NCBI GenBank assembly: GCA_963665665.1
Contig: OY762428.1
Span: forward strand, 5,152,001 to 5,216,000
Direction: 5' to 3'
DNA from: Candidatus Kapaibacterium sp.
GTDB taxonomy: Bacteria > Bacteroidota > Ignavibacteria > Kapaibacteriales > UBA2268
Length of the DNA: 64,000 bases
This document shows, piece by piece, positions 1 through 30,608 of this stretch (positions are counted from its first letter, which is position 1; each line of letters opens with the position of its first letter). Made by a program: the position numbers and the translations under genes. The notes beneath the pieces were generated by a model. That model saw only the letters and a program-made list of their open reading frames with translations, was not told the origin of the DNA and ran no database searches.

Positions 1-156
1 TCCGAAGGAGGGGGCCGGGGGGAGGTAGGAAGGGGCGAAAGCAAAGCACCAAAGTTTTAACCTATTGCTGCCTTGTTCGGAATCATTGCCGCCTTGTTTG
101 AAGATAATAAACTCTTGGTTGAAGCCATTGCAGCAATGTGTTGCTTTATTGCTGCC

Positions 157-323
157 TTGGTTGGAGTCATTGATGCCTTGGTTGAAGTCATTGACGCCTT
201 GGTCGGAGTCATTGACGCCTTGGTCGGAGTCATTGATGCCTTGGTCGGAGTCATTGATGCCTTGGTCGGAGTCATTGACGCCTTGGTCGAAGTCATTGAA
301 CTCTTGGTCGGAGGCAAAGAACA
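157..323 (+). repeat. 21-bp tandem array A, copy 1
   Basis: TTGGT units start at 157,178,199,220,241,262,283,304; degenerate in-phase units continue leftward (73,94,115,136). Confidence 0.95.
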
Positions 324-328
324 TGTTC

Positions 329-454
329 AGTAAGGTCAACCAAGTGTTCAGTAAGGTCAACCAAGTGTTCAGTAAGGTCAACCAAGTGTTCAATAAGGTC
401 AACCAAGTGTTCAGTAAGGTCAACCAAGTGTTCAGAAAGGTCAACCAAGTGTTC
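329..454 (+). repeat. 21-bp tandem array B, copy 1 (6 units)
   Basis: Six near-identical AGTAAGGTCAACCAAGTGTTC units; degenerate in-phase tail to about 660. Confidence 0.95.
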
Positions 455-692
455 AATGAGGCCAAATTTCACTACATTAAGGCCAAACAGTAGTTCAATA
501 ACTCCGGCCAAGGCAGTTTAAAGCCCTGCCAACAAAACATTTAGCCCAAACATTTGGATTCTGGTTCAAAACAGCGTTGAATTAAGGAAATTATTCGATT
601 CATTGAAACCAGAAGATGGGGAATTAAGGCCGGCGGCCTGTTCATTGGGGTGGAAGAACGGGTAAACAGAGCAAAAGAATGAGGTATTATGT

Positions 693-1057
693 TGTCATTC
701 TGACGGAGCGAAGCGACGGAAGAAACCATCTTTGTTTGCAGATAGTGTATGAAGAATCCACCCCGTCTCGCTGCGCTCGCCACCCCTCAACGAGGGGAAT
801 TTTCCGGAAGTCCACCCCCGTCCTTCGGACACCCCCGCCAGCGGGGGACATTCCCATCCGTCATTCTGAACAAAGTGAAGAATCCATCTTTCTTTGCAGA
901 TTAGGTATTAAGAATGGATTCTTCGCTGGCGCTCAGAATGACCTCCCCGACCATCGTCAAGTTCAATTGCCACGTGCTTTAGCTCGTGGATAAGGGCGCA
1001 AGGTTCGGAAGCAAGGAAAAGAATCCACCCCTGTAATTCCCTCCAAGGTAGGGGATG
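693..1057. repeat. Mosaic of REP-like palindromic repeats
   Basis: GTCATTCTGA..GAAGAA half (693), 49-mer AAGAATCCACCCC..CCCCTCAACGAGGGGAAT (752-800), CCCCCGCCAGCGGGGG hairpin (812-850), inverted pair GTCATTCTGA..TCAGAATGAC (860-942), GCCACGTGCTTTAGCTCGTGG (962-993); all recur elsewhere in the window. Confidence 0.85.
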
Positions 1058-25866: not shown

Positions 25867-26946
25867 ATGGAATTAGAAAAAATAGCCGGAATGAATAAGG
25901 GGATAAAATCATACAGATGGATAATATTATCCGCACTTGTGTTTGTGGTTTTATTAAATTCCTGCACACAGTTGAGGAGCGTAAGGCATTATGCCGGCCC
26001 TTATGTTGTGAAGAAAGAGGCCGGAGGAGTGGAAATACCAACAGATGACGCGAAGGCAATTCAGGTAAACCCTGATGATCCGAAACTTAAACAGAACAGG
26101 GATATACTGGCAAAGCTTGAAGAATTTCGCGAAATGGCTGAAAAACAACAATCCGGGGAAGGCCTGAAACCCGAAGAGGGTCTGCTTGCAACAAGCGATA
26201 ACAGGCCCGTGAAATCGGTTCGCAGAAGGCTGCCGACCCTAAGGGAACAGATGAGGGAAATAGCCGACAAACAGGTTGCAATGGAATCAAGGCTGAATAA
26301 TATCGAAGGAGATATCAGCGATATAAGGGGAGATATTGCGTCAATTAACAGGAAACTTGACAATATTACAACCCGGGACGCAGGAGCTATTGCAGGCGTG
26401 CAGCAAAAAAGGGCAGAGAATCCGAATTATGCTTCCCAGACATTTTTCGATGACGAAGACATTATTCTTCCTGAAGAAATGGAAGAACCAAAAGCAAAAG
26501 CCAAACCGAAGAAAACTGTTAAAACTGATCAGGCTAAAATCCATGATGATCCGAAACCTGCTGCTAACACAAACCAGGAGCAACAAAAGGAAAAACTCGC
26601 GGCTATTGCTAAAAATGTAGAAAGTAAAGATTACAGCAATGCGCTGAATTCATTGAATAAACTTCTGAAAGAATCTGAAAACCCGACAATAATCGTTAAT
26701 TGTCATTACTGGATTGGCGAATCGTACTTCGGACTGGAACAATTCGAAGATGCAATTGAGCATTTCAAGATGGTTGTTGATTCAAAAATACCTGATAATA
26801 AACCGAAAGCCAGGATAATGATAGCGGAGTCTTTGATACGTACCGGAAAAGTTAAGGAAGCAAAGAAGGAATATTCCACGCTTATTGCAAATCATCCGTC
26901 AAGCGAATATGTTCCCGATGCAAGGAAAATGCTTCAGAAACTGTAA
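25867..26946 (+). CDS. CpoB/YbgF-like coiled-coil + TPR lipoprotein
   Basis: LLNSC lipobox, coiled coil, C-terminal TPR HYWIGESYF..AIEHF..HPSSEY. Confidence 0.75.
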   Translation: MELEKIAGMNKGIKSYRWIILSALVFVVLLNSCTQLRSVRHYAGPYVVKKEAGGVEIPTDDAKAIQVNPDDPKLKQNRDILAKLEEFREMAEKQQSGEGLKPEEGLLATSDNRPVKSVRRRLPTLREQMREIADKQVAMESRLNNIEGDISDIRGDIASINRKLDNITTRDAGAIAGVQQKRAENPNYASQTFFDDEDIILPEEMEEPKAKAKPKKTVKTDQAKIHDDPKPAANTNQEQQKEKLAAIAKNVESKDYSNALNSLNKLLKESENPTIIVNCHYWIGESYFGLEQFEDAIEHFKMVVDSKIPDNKPKARIMIAESLIRTGKVKEAKKEYSTLIANHPSSEYVPDARKMLQKL

Positions 26947-26967
26947 TATATATCATTCAAAAATCAA

Positions 26968-27005
26968 AAGCCGATTCGGAGATATAAATTCGTATCGGTT
27001 TTTTT
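26968..27005 (+). terminator. Probable intrinsic terminator
   Basis: AAGCCGATTCG...CGTATCGGTT followed by a T run after the CpoB-like gene. Confidence 0.55.
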
Positions 27006-27050
27006 ATTTCCACTGTAATACCACCTTGTTCTAAAGCAAAGAAAGAAAAC

Positions 27051-27495
27051 CACCCCCTTCCTTCGGACTCATCGGGGCCGGCGGAGGACAGCTAACGTTG
27101 TCATTCTGACCAAGCTTGCGACTGAAGAATCCATCTTTGTTTGCAGATAGTGTATGAAGAATCCACCCCGTCTCGCTGCGCTCGCCACCCCTCAACGAGG
27201 GGAATTTTTCCGGAAATCCACCCCGCCCTTATACTCGCATCTAAGCCCCTGCTTAGATGTGATGTTTTCTTTTTTTCCCAGTGGTATTTGCCTTCCCAAG
27301 CGGGGCTTGGGAAGGAGTATAAAATCAGCCATCCCGAAAGCGGCGTAGCCGCGACATTTTTGTAGAAAGGCGAATCCGGAAAGGACAACACCCCCGTCGG
27401 GGCGGCATTGGCAAAAGATTGTGTCGCTCCTACGGAGCTTTTTGAAATAATGACTGACAAAATATCTACAAAAATTCCGCTCCTACGGAGCTTTT
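27051..27495. repeat. REP-like mosaic, left flank of fold-back copy 2
   Basis: GTCATTCTGA half (27099), 49-mer (27157-27205), CATCTAAGC..GCTTAGATG and CCTTCCCAAG..CTTGGGAAGG hairpins, two CGCTCCTACGGAGCT, and TTTTTGTAGA/TCTACAAAAA inverted ends. Confidence 0.8.
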
Positions 27496-27497
27496 TC

Positions 27498-28157
27498 CCT
27501 TCTTCCGAAGGATCTGGCCGGGGGTAGGTAGGAAGGGTCGGAAGCAAAGCACCAAAGTTTTAACTTATTGCTGCCCTATTCTTCTTCAAAGCCCTTCCCT
27601 TCGGGGAGGGTTTGGGAGGGGTCAGAAGCATTGCACCGATGGTTGAAGATAATGGCGCACTGACCAGAAGCAAAGAAAGAAAACCACCCCTGTATTCCCC
27701 TCCTACATTAGGAGGGGATAAGAAATTAAATATCATAGAATTAACTCCCCCTTCTTCCGAAGGATCTGGCCGGGGGTAGGTAGGAAGGGTCGGAAGCAAA
27801 GCACCAAAGTTTTAACTTATTGCTGCCCTATTCTTCTTCAAAGCCCTCCCCTTCGGGGAGGGTTTGGGAGGGGTCAGAAGCATTGCACCGATGGTTGAAG
27901 ATAATGGCGCACTGACCAGAAGCAAAGCAAGAAAACCACCCCTGTATTCCCCTCCTACTTTAGGAGGGGATAAGAAGTTAAATATCATAGAATTAACTCC
28001 CCCTCCTTCCGAAGGAGGGGGCCGGGGGGAGGTAGGAAGGGTCGAAAGCAAAGCACCGATTGTTTGGGATATTGGCGCACTATTCTTCTTCAAAGCCCTC
28101 CCCTTCGGGGAGGGTTTGGGAGGGGTCAGAAGCAATGCAACGATGTTTGATGATAAT
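27498..28157. repeat. 252-bp tandem repeat (about 2.6 copies) containing three GC-rich hairpins per unit
   Basis: T(T/C)CTTCCGAAGGA recurs at 27500, 27752 and 28004 (period 252 = 12 x 21). Confidence 0.9.
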
Positions 28158-28205
28158 GAACTCTTGGTTGAAGTTATTGCAGCATTGTTTTGCTTTATTG
28201 ATGCC

Positions 28206-28351
28206 TTGGTCGGAGTTATTGATGCCTTGGTCGGAGTTATTGATGCCTTGGTCGAAGTCATTGATGCCTTGGTCGGAGTTATTGATGCCTTGGTCGGAGT
28301 TATTGACGCCTTGGTTGAAGTCATTGACGCCTTGGTTGAAGTCATTGATTA
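28206..28351 (+). repeat. 21-bp tandem array A, copy 2 (7 units)
   Basis: TTGGT units at 28206 to 28332 every 21 nt; degenerate units at 28143, 28164, 28185. Confidence 0.95.
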
Positions 28352-28356
28352 TAATC

Positions 28357-28776
28357 AGTAAGGTCAACCAAGCTGTCAGTAAGGTCAACCAAGCTGTCAG
28401 TAAGGTCAACCAAGCTGTCAGTAAGGTCAACCAGGCTGTCAGTAAGGTCAACCAGGCTGTCAGTAAGGTCAACCAAGCTGTCAGTAAGGTCAACCAGGCT
28501 GTCAGTAAGGTCAACCAAGTGTTCAGTAAGATCAACCAAGTGTTCAGTAAGATCAACCAAGTGTTCAGTAAAGCCAACCAAGTGTTCAATAAGGTCAACC
28601 AAGTGTTCAGTAAAGCCAACCAAGTGTTCAATAAGGTCAACCAAGTGTTCAGTAAGATCAACCAAGTGTTCAGTAAAGCCAACCAAGTGTTCAATAAGGT
28701 CAACCAAGTGTTCAGTAAAGCCAACCAAGTGTTCAATAAGGTCAACCAAGTGTTCAGTAAGATCAACCAAGTGTTC
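28357..28776 (+). repeat. 21-bp tandem array B, copy 2 (20 units)
   Basis: 7 x AGTAAGGTCAACCA(A/G)GCTGTC then 13 x ..AACCAAGTGTTC variants; tail 28777-28984 matches 455-662. Confidence 0.95.
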
Positions 28777-29003
28777 AATGAGGCCAAATTTCACTACATT
28801 AAGGCCAAACAGTAGTTCAATACCACCGGCAAAGGCAGTTTAAAGCCCTGCCAACAAAGCGTTTAGCCCAAACATCAGGATTCTGGTTCAAAACAGCGTT
28901 GAATTAAGGAAATTATCCGGTTCATTGAAACCACAGGATAGGGAATTAAGTCCGGCGGCCTGTTCATTGGGGTGGAAGAACGGGGAGTAAGGGACAGTTG
29001 ACG

Positions 29004-29432
29004 TTGTCATTCCCCGACCAGTCACCGAAAAATCGGGAATTTGCCCACCGCCAGCGAGGAACATTCCCATCCGTCATTCTGACGGAGCGAAGCGACCGAA
29101 GAATCCATGCAAAATAGCAGATAATTTATGAAGAATGGATTCTTCGCTGGCGCTCAGAATGACATCCCAGCCTTATAATCGTCAAATTCAATTGCCACGT
29201 GCTTTAGCTCGTGGATAAAGTAGGCTAAGAAAAAGAATCCACCCCTGCCTGTCCCGACGTGTCGGGAACTCGCTGCGCTCGCCACCCCTCAACGAGGGGA
29301 ATTTTTCCGGAAATCCACCCCCGCCCTTCGGGCACCCCCGCCAGCGGGGGACAGGTGGCTTCTTCCAATTTTTAATTCTTAATTGTCAATTATCAATTAG
29401 GAACGAATTCTTCGCTGGCGTACAGGATGACA
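29004..29432. repeat. REP-like mosaic, right flank of fold-back copy 2
   Basis: Inverted pair 29073-29164, GCCACGTGCTTTAGCTCGTGG 29187-29218, 49-mer variant 29233-29302, CCCCCGCCAGCGGGGG hairpin, final half-site TTCTTCGCTGGCG..GATGACA. Confidence 0.85.
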
Positions 29433-29459
29433 GCACTTCCGCCAGTGGGGAAGAGGGAA

Positions 29460-30608
29460 TTATACTTCTTCAATACTAACGTATTTGCCTTTTTCGCGCA
29501 GGCGACATGCTATCAGGCGGACTACGCGGTCGCGCTTTATAAGGCCCATCTGGCGAAATCGTATATTTGAATCGGCGGGATTAATGCCGCGTCCGAGTAT
29601 AAAATTAATCCGGTCGGAAGAATGAATGATATCGTAGAGCTTGGTAACGGGGTTGTCCTCGTCGAAAACTTCCCGGTCTTCGTCCAGCAGGTTGAAAAGC
29701 TGGTTCAGGGTCATAACTCCCTCGCACACAAGGTCTATACCATTAATTCGGCTTTCCGGCGGCGTCAGGTCGTCTGTGGCAATGCCCGTGTTTTGAATTT
29801 CGTTTCCTGTATACTCTGAAACGATCCGTGCGGTAGTGGCTCCGCAGATCACTTTCCTGCCGGGGCCGGCAAGGAATTTCTGAACGGTGAATTTGTCGTT
29901 GGACTGCCTTGCGGGCGGGCCCGTGAAGATATTTGTAATGTTTGCTTCCGTGGTTCTGACGGCAAGGATAGTATAGTCGTCCTGGTTTGTGCCCCCGCAT
30001 ATTTCCAGGGATTTTTTCCTGATCATTTTTACTAAGGACCTTTTGCTTGAACTTCCAAGCAGAGAAGTAAAAATGAAATCGTTAAGGCCTTCTTCGCCCC
30101 ATCCCAGAGGGTATCCCATTCCGAGGCCTGCCTGTGTTATGCCATCGCTCACACATAGCAGCCCCATACCGGAATCAAGCCATCCGTTAAATTCGGATGT
30201 TACTTTTTCTCCTATCGTTCTTGTTCTGCCTTTCAGAATTTTCGACTGATTAGAGTATAACAATATTGGCGAGGGCATATCATAGTTGAAGATGGAAAAA
30301 GATCCGTCGTTGAGTATCCGCATTATCATGAACACAGCGTAAGGCAGATTGTTTTCAACAGCGCTATTCATTGTTTCTGCTACTTTCCTGAAAGCTTTTC
30401 GCAGGTGGGTTCCGCCGCGGACAAGTTCTTTGAGCCTTGAAATGCAGAGCAGTGCCGCAATATTTGCTTTCACCCCCGAACCCAGCCCGTCAGCAATAAT
30501 TACCAATGTACCCTTGTCATCCCTGAGATAATCCCAGGCATCGCCGCAGGGCTGCCCCGGATACTTAGAGTCCTGCAGGCAGTCTATTTTGCAGTGAAGA
30601 TATCCCAT
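29460..30608 (-). CDS. SpoIIE/PP2C-family Ser/Thr phosphatase (hydrogenase-associated)
   Basis: PCGDA, IADGLGSGVKAN, VSDGITQAG, DDYT, VICGATTA, EGVMTL. Confidence 0.9.
   Translation of the reverse strand: MGYLHCKIDCLQDSKYPGQPCGDAWDYLRDDKGTLVIIADGLGSGVKANIAALLCISRLKELVRGGTHLRKAFRKVAETMNSAVENNLPYAVFMIMRILNDGSFSIFNYDMPSPILLYSNQSKILKGRTRTIGEKVTSEFNGWLDSGMGLLCVSDGITQAGLGMGYPLGWGEEGLNDFIFTSLLGSSSKRSLVKMIRKKSLEICGGTNQDDYTILAVRTTEANITNIFTGPPARQSNDKFTVQKFLAGPGRKVICGATTARIVSEYTGNEIQNTGIATDDLTPPESRINGIDLVCEGVMTLNQLFNLLDEDREVFDEDNPVTKLYDIIHSSDRINFILGRGINPADSNIRFRQMGLIKRDRVVRLIACRLREKGKYVSIEEV

Follow-up and report, generated by a model that had tools for sequence, protein, structure and literature searches.

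GC-rich hairpins lie in register within the 21-nt repeat arms of a dispersed palindromic element in Candidatus Kapaibacterium

The genome of Candidatus Kapaibacterium sp. harbors a dispersed, intergenic element with two inverted arms built of 21-nt units. In the copy discussed here, GC-rich hairpins lie in register inside the 21-nt array. This copy resides in a stretch of 64,000 nt (hereafter, the window: GenBank assembly GCA_963665665.1, contig OY762428.1, positions 5,152,001 to 5,216,000 of the forward strand). An earlier note on this DNA had reported that hairpins are embedded in a 252-bp repeat without breaking its 21-nt phase, and had proposed that the register itself, as helical phase or as heptad frame, is constrained along the left arm. 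The in-phase position of the hairpins is confirmed, and the register is indeed kept over the whole left arm, but selection for it is unproven. The explanation that we favor, with a probability of about 0.55, is that the element is a non-coding repeat of the foldback type, the phase of which was inherited via two in-phase blocks and has been kept by unit-wise turnover. The phase at 27546-28142, if inherited and kept in this manner, is not evidence of a reading frame.

Hairpins in phase with the left arm

A 2,513-bp gap between two converging open reading frames (ORFs) holds the element, the parts of which are as follows (window coordinates).

27497..28158, + strand: 252-bp higher-order repeat (12 x 21 nt), the outer part of the A-type (left) arm
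27588..27629, + strand: H1 block, 42 nt (2 units), again at 27840-27881 and 28092-28133
27592-27610: H1 hairpin CCCTTCCCTTCGGGGAGGG, with further H1 at 27844-27862 and 28096-28114
27672..27797, + strand: M block, 126 nt (6 units), with hairpins H2 and H3; again at 27924-28049, with a partial outermost copy from 27497
27697-27717 and 27949-27969: H2 hairpin
27999-28021: H3 hairpin, with weaker forms starting at 27497 and 27749
28134..28343, + strand: inner left arm, with three degenerate units ahead of clean array A, the units facing the centre
28195-28349: array A, 21 nt x 7.4 copies (Tandem Repeats Finder)
28344..28359: 16-nt centre ATTGATTATAATCAGT, with the palindromic core TGATTATAATCA at 28346-28357
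28355-28777: array B, 21 nt x 20.1 copies (Tandem Repeats Finder)
28360..28821, - strand: B-type (right) arm, about 21 units (inverted repeats, weight matrix)
28778..28995, - strand: R1 module, the conserved outer end of the B arm
1..700, + strand: second copy of the element in the window, shorter and running off the window's left end

The array-A unit is ATTGATGCCTTGGTCGGAGTT, and array B on the minus strand is ATTGAACACTTGGTTGACCTT, a homologue of that unit, so that the two arrays face each other across the centre; the centre itself is the first 8 nt of the unit fused to their own reverse complement. Tandem Repeats Finder gives the 252-bp repeat 2.6 copies with 93% matches and 0% indels, the identity being 98% between copies 1 and 2 and 63% between copies 3 and 1.

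When this region is cut into 21-mers from 27546, all the unit starts quoted in the earlier note (AAA GCA, ATT GCT, AAA GCC, ATT GCA, AAT GGC, AAA GAA and ATA GAA) and both unit ends (GTC AGA AGC and GTC GGA AGC) are present, and the distance from 27546 to 28134 is 588 nt, that is, 28 x 21. The same phase was said to hold in the copy at the start of the window, and it does: an in-phase 126-nt M block (H2 and H3) runs to 42, units begin at 43 and 64, and the centre core GAACATGTTC follows at about 316-331, then a B arm and R1. Two caveats apply. Of the 12 units of the 252-bp repeat, about 7-8 are degenerate forms of the array-A unit: against genomic 21-mers, three score above the 99.6th percentile, four at the 92nd-98th and one at the 87th, but the four at 27672-27755 (21st-55th percentile) are not unit-like and are foreign. 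Three hairpins were said to fill whole multiples of 21 nt; the lengths are exact, but there are really two blocks, the 42-nt block of H1, which sits between intact units, and the single 126-nt block that H2 and H3 share.

A weight matrix built solely from the seven clean array-A units and scored in all phases prefers phase 0 over 27546-28196 (z 3.9-4.9), with z-scores of 4.06 for 27546-28133, 4.08 and 3.88 for single 252-bp copies, and 4.89 for 28050-28196. In the flanks, the preference is weak at most, the best phase being 0 on the left (z 2.1) and 6 on the right (z 2.0). For one 252-nt copy, the observed best-phase mean is reached by 1 of 5000 dinucleotide-preserving shuffles; copies 1 and 2, being 98% identical, are not independent evidence. 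The autocorrelation at lag 21 that the earlier note had suggested as a check is weak within one 252-nt copy (0.264 vs 0.244 +/- 0.04); a Fourier test would barely detect the phase, which the weight matrix does resolve.

A dispersed element across the genome

Tandem tracts of period 21 number 123 in the genome and cover 27.5 kb, and tracts of periods 7, 14, 19, 20, 22 and 23 are absent. A family-wide weight matrix recovers 2,405 units above 10 bits; the element's units, counted at 1,923, amount to about 40 kb of the genome. In 55 of the 63 clusters, a plus-strand arm is followed by a minus-strand arm; the purely opposite order does not occur, although it is contained within three mixed clusters (minus-plus-minus twice, plus-minus-plus once). 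Two of the 55 clusters are tiny and probably spurious, which leaves 53 loci, with A arms of 84-1764 nt and B arms of 168-1135 nt.

The centre is exactly 16 nt long in 39 of the 55 plus-minus clusters and comes in three sequence variants, all of which join the first 8 nt of the unit to their own reverse complement. Fourteen copies of the element carry a central insert of about 541 nt (14-17% GC, inverted ends GAAATCC...GGATTTC), measuring 541 nt in 8 loci, 562 nt in 1 and 162 + 21 + 358 nt in 5; examples are the following.

G000:C1:1260014-1260575: central insert
G000:C1:2212152-2212692: central insert
G000:C1:3088728-3089268: central insert

These inserts hold no real ORFs. The four-helix-bundle gene (PF05635), considered as a possible cargo, has three copies in the genome, none at an element locus. 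R1 adjoins the B arm in 52 of the 53 loci, and its 45 distinct copies align without gaps over 218 columns with a mean column identity of 0.917; the consensus RNA fold of R1 is weak on either strand (-12 and -5 kcal/mol). Conservation within the unit is strongest at positions 1-4 (A.TG) and 9-14 (CTTG.T), two blocks separated by variable positions, and the profile has no 7-nt sub-period.

Every element locus occupies a large gap between long ORFs. The neighbouring genes converge at 20 of the 53 loci, are co-directional at 26 and diverge at 7; among the 3,458 background gene pairs of the genome, the counts are 533, 2,392 and 533, respectively.

Two other kinds of repeats came to light in the same genome. 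A second 21-nt family with an unrelated-looking unit (G000:C1:235709-236296 and 4735815-4736360, with many loci genome-wide) consists of about 13 units CCAACGCTAAGACGGCACGAA followed by about 14 units GGAACGCTCGGAAAGCACGGG in the same orientation and phase, that is, direct sub-arrays. At G000:C1:121293-126825, rows of period 65-67 contain a 30-nt repeat ATTTCAATTCCTATATGGTTCGATTAAAGG with variable spacers and resemble a CRISPR array.

Phase and length differences between copies

All strong units share one phase in 89 of the 106 arms. Of the 228 blocks that separate one strong unit from the next, 211 have a length divisible by 21. At greater distances, successive units are in phase in 47 of 57 cases (spacing of 64-150 nt) and in 24 of 31 (151-400 nt). 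Phase changes occur in 17 of the 106 arms, some of which then run for 4 to about 20-35 units in the new phase; a shift of 16 nt recurs in three arms and, in one of these (G000 1462900), is directly visible as a 16-nt insertion inside H1.

Length differences between copies follow a similar pattern. Of 178 BLAST alignments of 27497-28196 with other loci, 98 show no net shift and another 37 are shifted by a whole multiple of 21; in the two flanks, shifts of the latter kind number 2 of 38 and 0 of 98. The earlier note had proposed to test whether indels between copies come in multiples of 21, and such multiples are strongly enriched in the arms. The remaining 43 of the 178 arm alignments show other shifts, a part of which may stem from H2/H3 modules located outside arms. 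All 18 of the higher-order repeats that bear hairpins inside arms have a period divisible by 21 (84-273), whereas tandem hairpin repeats outside arms have periods of 132, 132, 133 and 256, plus 168 at an arm edge, with one multiple of 21 among the five. The multiples-of-21 rule, therefore, belongs to the arm context, and this pattern, which is what one would expect of duplications and deletions with end points in homologous 21-nt units, points to whole-unit, in-register exchange behind the periods of the higher-order repeats.

Descent of the hairpin blocks

The genome contains 63 copies of H1, 104 of H2 and 34 of H3; those examined are all located between long ORFs. Among the 55 H1 copies with an upstream unit, 54 begin at phase 4, and the H1 spans between flanking units are multiples of 21 in 52 of 54 cases; in-phase spans number 17 of 17 for H3 and 25 of 27 for H2. 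Because each hairpin occurs at a single fixed phase in nearly all copies, which suggests identity by descent, the many in-phase cases probably collapse into two founder events, and the hairpins are not independent witnesses of the register. Among the 136 distinct in-phase 21-mers that are not units, the 45 commonest were inspected: the low scorers (about -10 bits or below) belong to the H1 or M blocks, and the remainder (about -6 to -1 bits) resemble units that are weak or degenerate. The two in-phase blocks are present in about 57 and about 30 copies, and out-of-phase blocks are low-copy.

The hairpins also lead a life outside the arms. H1 occurs elsewhere in the genome as inverted pairs and, in BLAST searches, is the sole part of the element with matches in relatives (5 of 40 genomes, which lack these arrays). 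For H2, 54 of the 104 copies are more than 300 nt away from any unit. As many as 16 of the 34 copies of H3 sit at an arm's outer edge and have units solely on the inner side, which suggests that the 126-nt block was the original arm terminus, later carried inward.

Unit-wise turnover or a selected lattice

The scenario of inherited phase would then run as follows. An element with an A arm of 21-nt units, a 16-nt palindromic centre, an opposite-strand B arm and a 218-nt end module would gain and lose DNA in its arms mainly as whole units, by in-register slippage or unequal exchange between the 21-nt units, and the same process would build higher-order repeats such as the 252-bp one. The REP-like hairpins would have entered the A arm once each, as the 42-nt block (H1) and the 126-nt block (H2 and H3), the latter probably being the original outer terminus of the A arm, and both blocks would since have been copied along as oversized units.

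Several points weigh against this scenario. In-register exchange leaves the founder lengths of 42 and 126 unexplained, an out-of-phase block being equally duplicable, and by our own estimate, the chance that two insertions of arbitrary length, if independent, both fall in phase is about 1 in 441. A filter for phase would also yield the contrast in copy number between in-phase and out-of-phase blocks. Per 100 mismatches, the arm has 4.2 gap events and the flanks have 18.7 and 15.7, and this roughly fourfold deficit could reflect selection against small indels, although the comparison is unclean, because arm alignments pair non-orthologous units and the two causes are inseparable. Finally, no insertion footprint, empty site or transposase was found for the element, so that dispersal by transposition is not shown; no footprint could be defined because the outer ends of the element are mosaics of other repeats.

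The first of these points keeps alive a helical-phase model: both founder blocks are exact multiples of 21, and 21 bp is about two turns of B-DNA. Accordingly, one has to consider, as a possible but tentative alternative, that the register is selected, the arms being arrays of binding sites for one protein, with a 21-bp spacing that puts the sites on the same face, and only insertions of whole multiples of 21, which leave the filament or wrap uninterrupted, having been retained and amplified. Apart from the block lengths and the scarcity of gaps, this possibility draws on the two conserved blocks within the unit, as would be expected of a protein-binding site; on the retention, in the two arms, of a common word and orientation rather than base pairing; on period 21 being the sole abundant tandem period, used also by the second family with its different unit; and on the persistence of the period and of the converging layout in other genera with diverged units. 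The latter argument is partly circular, however, because the search of the relatives required period 21. Furthermore, a strict lattice sits uneasily with the 17 arms that change phase, several of them continuing for many units thereafter, and with the recurrent 16-nt shift, one instance of which interrupts H1; the binding protein remains putative; and all in-phase cases trace to two events. A more specific version, which we consider rather unlikely, is that a protein polymerizing along the arms from the palindromic centre reads the 21-bp lattice and tolerates foreign DNA solely in whole two-turn steps, making the element a prokaryotic counterpart of foldback-transposon ends or of a centromere-like wrap.

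The choice between these possibilities matters. If the phase lock reflects unit-wise turnover, the element is a clear bacterial example of satellite-style higher-order repeat evolution and a warning that a repeat register can be conserved for reasons other than a reading frame. A selected lattice would point to an unknown DNA-binding system that organizes about 53 intergenic sites and measures DNA in two-turn steps; if, in particular, a protein polymerizes along the arms, the 42- and 126-nt blocks would be the footprint of a structural ruler at about 53 loci (about 40 kb of units).

Coding capacity

The heptad frame of the earlier note fares poorly: frame 0 is interrupted by stop codons in copies 1 and 2 of the 252-bp repeat (TAA at 27561, TAG at 27777), the ratio of nonsynonymous to synonymous variation (pN/pS) is 0.80, and the phase shifts in the 17 arms show no excess of multiples of 3. 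A heptad-repeat (coiled-coil) protein gene was ruled out on account of the stops, the pN/pS value and the namelessness of the homologues described below. The broader possibility that the arms code for protein now or did so recently, 21 nt being a heptad (IDALVGV in the A arm, IEHLVDL on the minus strand of the B arm) and the hairpins being tolerated since 42 and 126 keep the frame, appears scarcely credible, even if it is not devoid of attractions. Frame 0 is the most open one, stop-free in 62 of the 106 arms with 1.39 stops per 100 codons, but the antisense frame is nearly as open (48 of 106). Its pN/pS is the lowest of the six (the other five range from 1.08 to 1.25) but well away from the values of real genes. 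Positions 3, 9 and 12 of the unit, all third codon positions, are among the best conserved, TTG almost never being TTA. At one locus, a frame-0 ORF of 471 aa passes through hairpin blocks, gene callers annotated ORFs at the locus here, and, by our own reading, some unit differences between genera are synonymous in frame 0. Nevertheless, a conserved start codon was not found; in the commonest centre variant, as we read the centre sequences, the frame is stop-free at the centre and continues into the other arm; and the second 21-nt family yields no plausible heptad. For a 165-aa frame-0 ORF, a search of 5.8 billion proteins gave nine homologues, all of them nameless, lacking Pfam domains and confined to the lineage; five are encoded on the ORF's own 5.46-Mb contig, the other four on contigs of 51-111 kb. 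A Pfam search with six ORFs of the locus returned coiled-coil or low-complexity families alone, in other frames of array B. The arms, in short, carry no coding signal.

Base pairing between the arms

The inverted layout raises another possibility, namely, that the arms pair, as a transcribed long hairpin RNA or a DNA cruciform, and that the register keeps them aligned. The locus in the window taken alone is suggestive, with Watson-Crick plus G-U pairing of about 0.8 over the first 155 nt from the axis, which is better than average, and an RNA fold of 28050-28800 at -278 kcal/mol, far below the shuffles (-190 +/- 8.7). Across the 39 loci with a 16-nt centre, however, the two arms of a locus have a Watson-Crick complementarity of about 0.57-0.63 in the 218 nt next to the axis, no higher than that between loci; by distance, it is 0.74 in the 8 nt nearest the axis and about 0.51 and 0.37 further out. 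The hairpin blocks are confined to the A arm, and the 252-nt repeat, as single-stranded DNA, folds no better than shuffles (z -1.04). Moreover, pairing gives no reason for multiples of 21, because an insertion in one arm would simply bulge out. We thus deem this possibility quite improbable. An Rfam scan of 26000-30500 yielded a sole hit, RAGATH-25 at 28887-28940, with 18.3 bits against a gathering threshold of 49 and an E-value of 0.5.

Surroundings of the locus

The neighborhood of the element in the window comprises the following features.

25867-26946, + strand: ORF for a TPR protein, the left neighbour
26947..27496, + strand: outer left flank, in which other dispersed repeats form a mosaic, with terminator-like hairpins
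27426-27438 and 27479-27491: hairpins of the repetitive extragenic palindrome (REP) type, GCTCCTACGGAGC, within the outer left flank
29460-30608, - strand: ORF for a SpoIIE/PP2C-type phosphatase, the right neighbour

A palindromic pair, GTCATTCTGAC...GAAGAATCCAT / ATGGATTCTTCGC...CAGAATGAC, is present at 29073-29165, and copies related to it occupy 27100-27162 and 29389-29432. In three relatives, the right-hand gene has orthologues of 41-45% identity, and the ORF that follows them is at most 144 nt away or overlapping, compared with 2,513 nt here. In one of these records (L138), the neighbour of the orthologue is unrelated to the window's left-hand gene; synteny with the relatives is lost on one side, and the insertion boundary is, therefore, unreadable. 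Short-read contigs from four runs that map on 26500-29900 break inside repeats, with no piece spanning the element.

The left-flank hairpins GCTCCTACGGAGC (27337-27496) are of the same motif, next to TTTTTGTAG, that flanks a gene for a Y1 transposase on both sides. This gene, which resembles REP-associated tyrosine transposases (RAYT), lies at G000:C1:1821817-1822161, flanked by GCTCCGTAGGAGC-type hairpins next to TTTTTGTAG, and no CCCTCCCC or GGAGGGG motif occurs within about 600-700 nt of it. Together, the GCTCCTACGGAGC hairpins and the Y1-transposase gene make up a classic REP/RAYT pair, and the CCCTCCCC-type hairpins embedded in the arm are of another kind.

Relatives and comparison with known systems

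Converging 21-nt arrays in an older, hairpin-free form are found in other genera of the family, in two genomes denoted G147 (e.g., 14 + 12 units) and G162, and the G162 centre, TGATTTTAATCA, is close to the one here. A loose pattern is matched by 7 of the 201 genomes of the order, with 905 matches in this genome and at most 17 in others; most of the 201 are fragmented assemblies, where such repeats often fail to assemble, so the scarcity among relatives means that the pattern was not found in those searched. An exact 30-mer of array A has no match across the genome contig collection, and a loose 21-period pattern matches at least 113 stretches from many phyla in it, most of them unrelated 21-nt repeats, e.g., in Nostoc. 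Among the Nostoc records (L014, L019, L058, L104, L109 and L119-L123), several contain tandem arrays of a common 21-nt unit (about GAACGAATGGACTTGTGTTCT), and a Tolypothrix record (L084) has two adjacent 21-nt arrays. The element family seems to be undescribed: a literature search, which did not extend to supplements, turned up no 21-nt repeat-armed palindromes in bacteria.

Several known systems share parts of this architecture, the closest in print being heptamer repeats and the foldback elements of eukaryotes. Iteron arrays and centromere-like ones of the ParR/parC type consist of contiguous repeats of about 20 bp that are cooperatively bound by a dedicated protein encoded nearby. The units here, of 21 bp, are contiguous as well, and the arms may at most be candidates for an array of this kind.

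The REP, BIME and REPIN sequences mobilized by RAYT Y1 transposases (PMC2817692, PMC3333891 and PMC3733652) resemble H1-H3, which are short GC-rich extragenic palindromes of high copy number, H1 being present also as inverted pairs outside arms and in related genomes. In contrast, the palindrome that flanks the RAYT-like gene here is of another type than H1-H3, and inside the arms, H1-H3 are single rather than paired and locked to a 21-nt lattice, which is not known as a property of REPs.

The heptamer repeats of bacteria (GGGAATC in Xanthomonas, and Nostoc repeats) are likewise intergenic short tandem units (Rehm et al. 2015, PMC4692102) and often form back-to-back inverted arrays that are scarce between divergent genes and whose arms have a common word rather than matched base pairs. 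The element here differs in having a 21-nt unit, with no abundant tracts of period 7 or 14 genome-wide, in being neither G-rich nor quadruplex-prone, in its arms of 0.1-1.8 kb with foreign hairpins embedded in phase, and in lacking a PF05635 gene between the arms. Assignment to the 7-nt tandem-repeat palindrome class was rejected on the tract counts, 0 of period 7 or 14 vs 123 of period 21.

Foldback elements, such as FB of Drosophila and those of the Galileo type, have arms of variable length and many dispersed copies, and their arms either meet directly or enclose a loop, as they do here around 16 nt or around the 541-nt AT-rich insert. Their long inverted arms consist of short tandem sub-repeats with higher-order structure (cf. 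PMC3688188), and the arms here are likewise long, inverted, tandem-built and variable in length. The element differs from them in being bacterial and strictly intergenic, with a 21-nt unit, in its two unlike arms (the hairpin-bearing A type versus the B type with R1), and in that no transposase, terminal cleavage site or target-site duplication was found. In the higher-order repeats of satellite DNA, an array of diverged monomers contains re-duplicated blocks of n monomers, the periods of which are exact multiples of the monomer. Although ours is a bacterial intergenic element of about 1 kb rather than a megabase array, and some of its 'monomers' are foreign hairpin modules, it has the same organization, with periods of 84-273 and, at the locus in the window, a repeat of 252 = 12 x 21 nt, the blocks of which (copies 1 and 2) are 98% alike.

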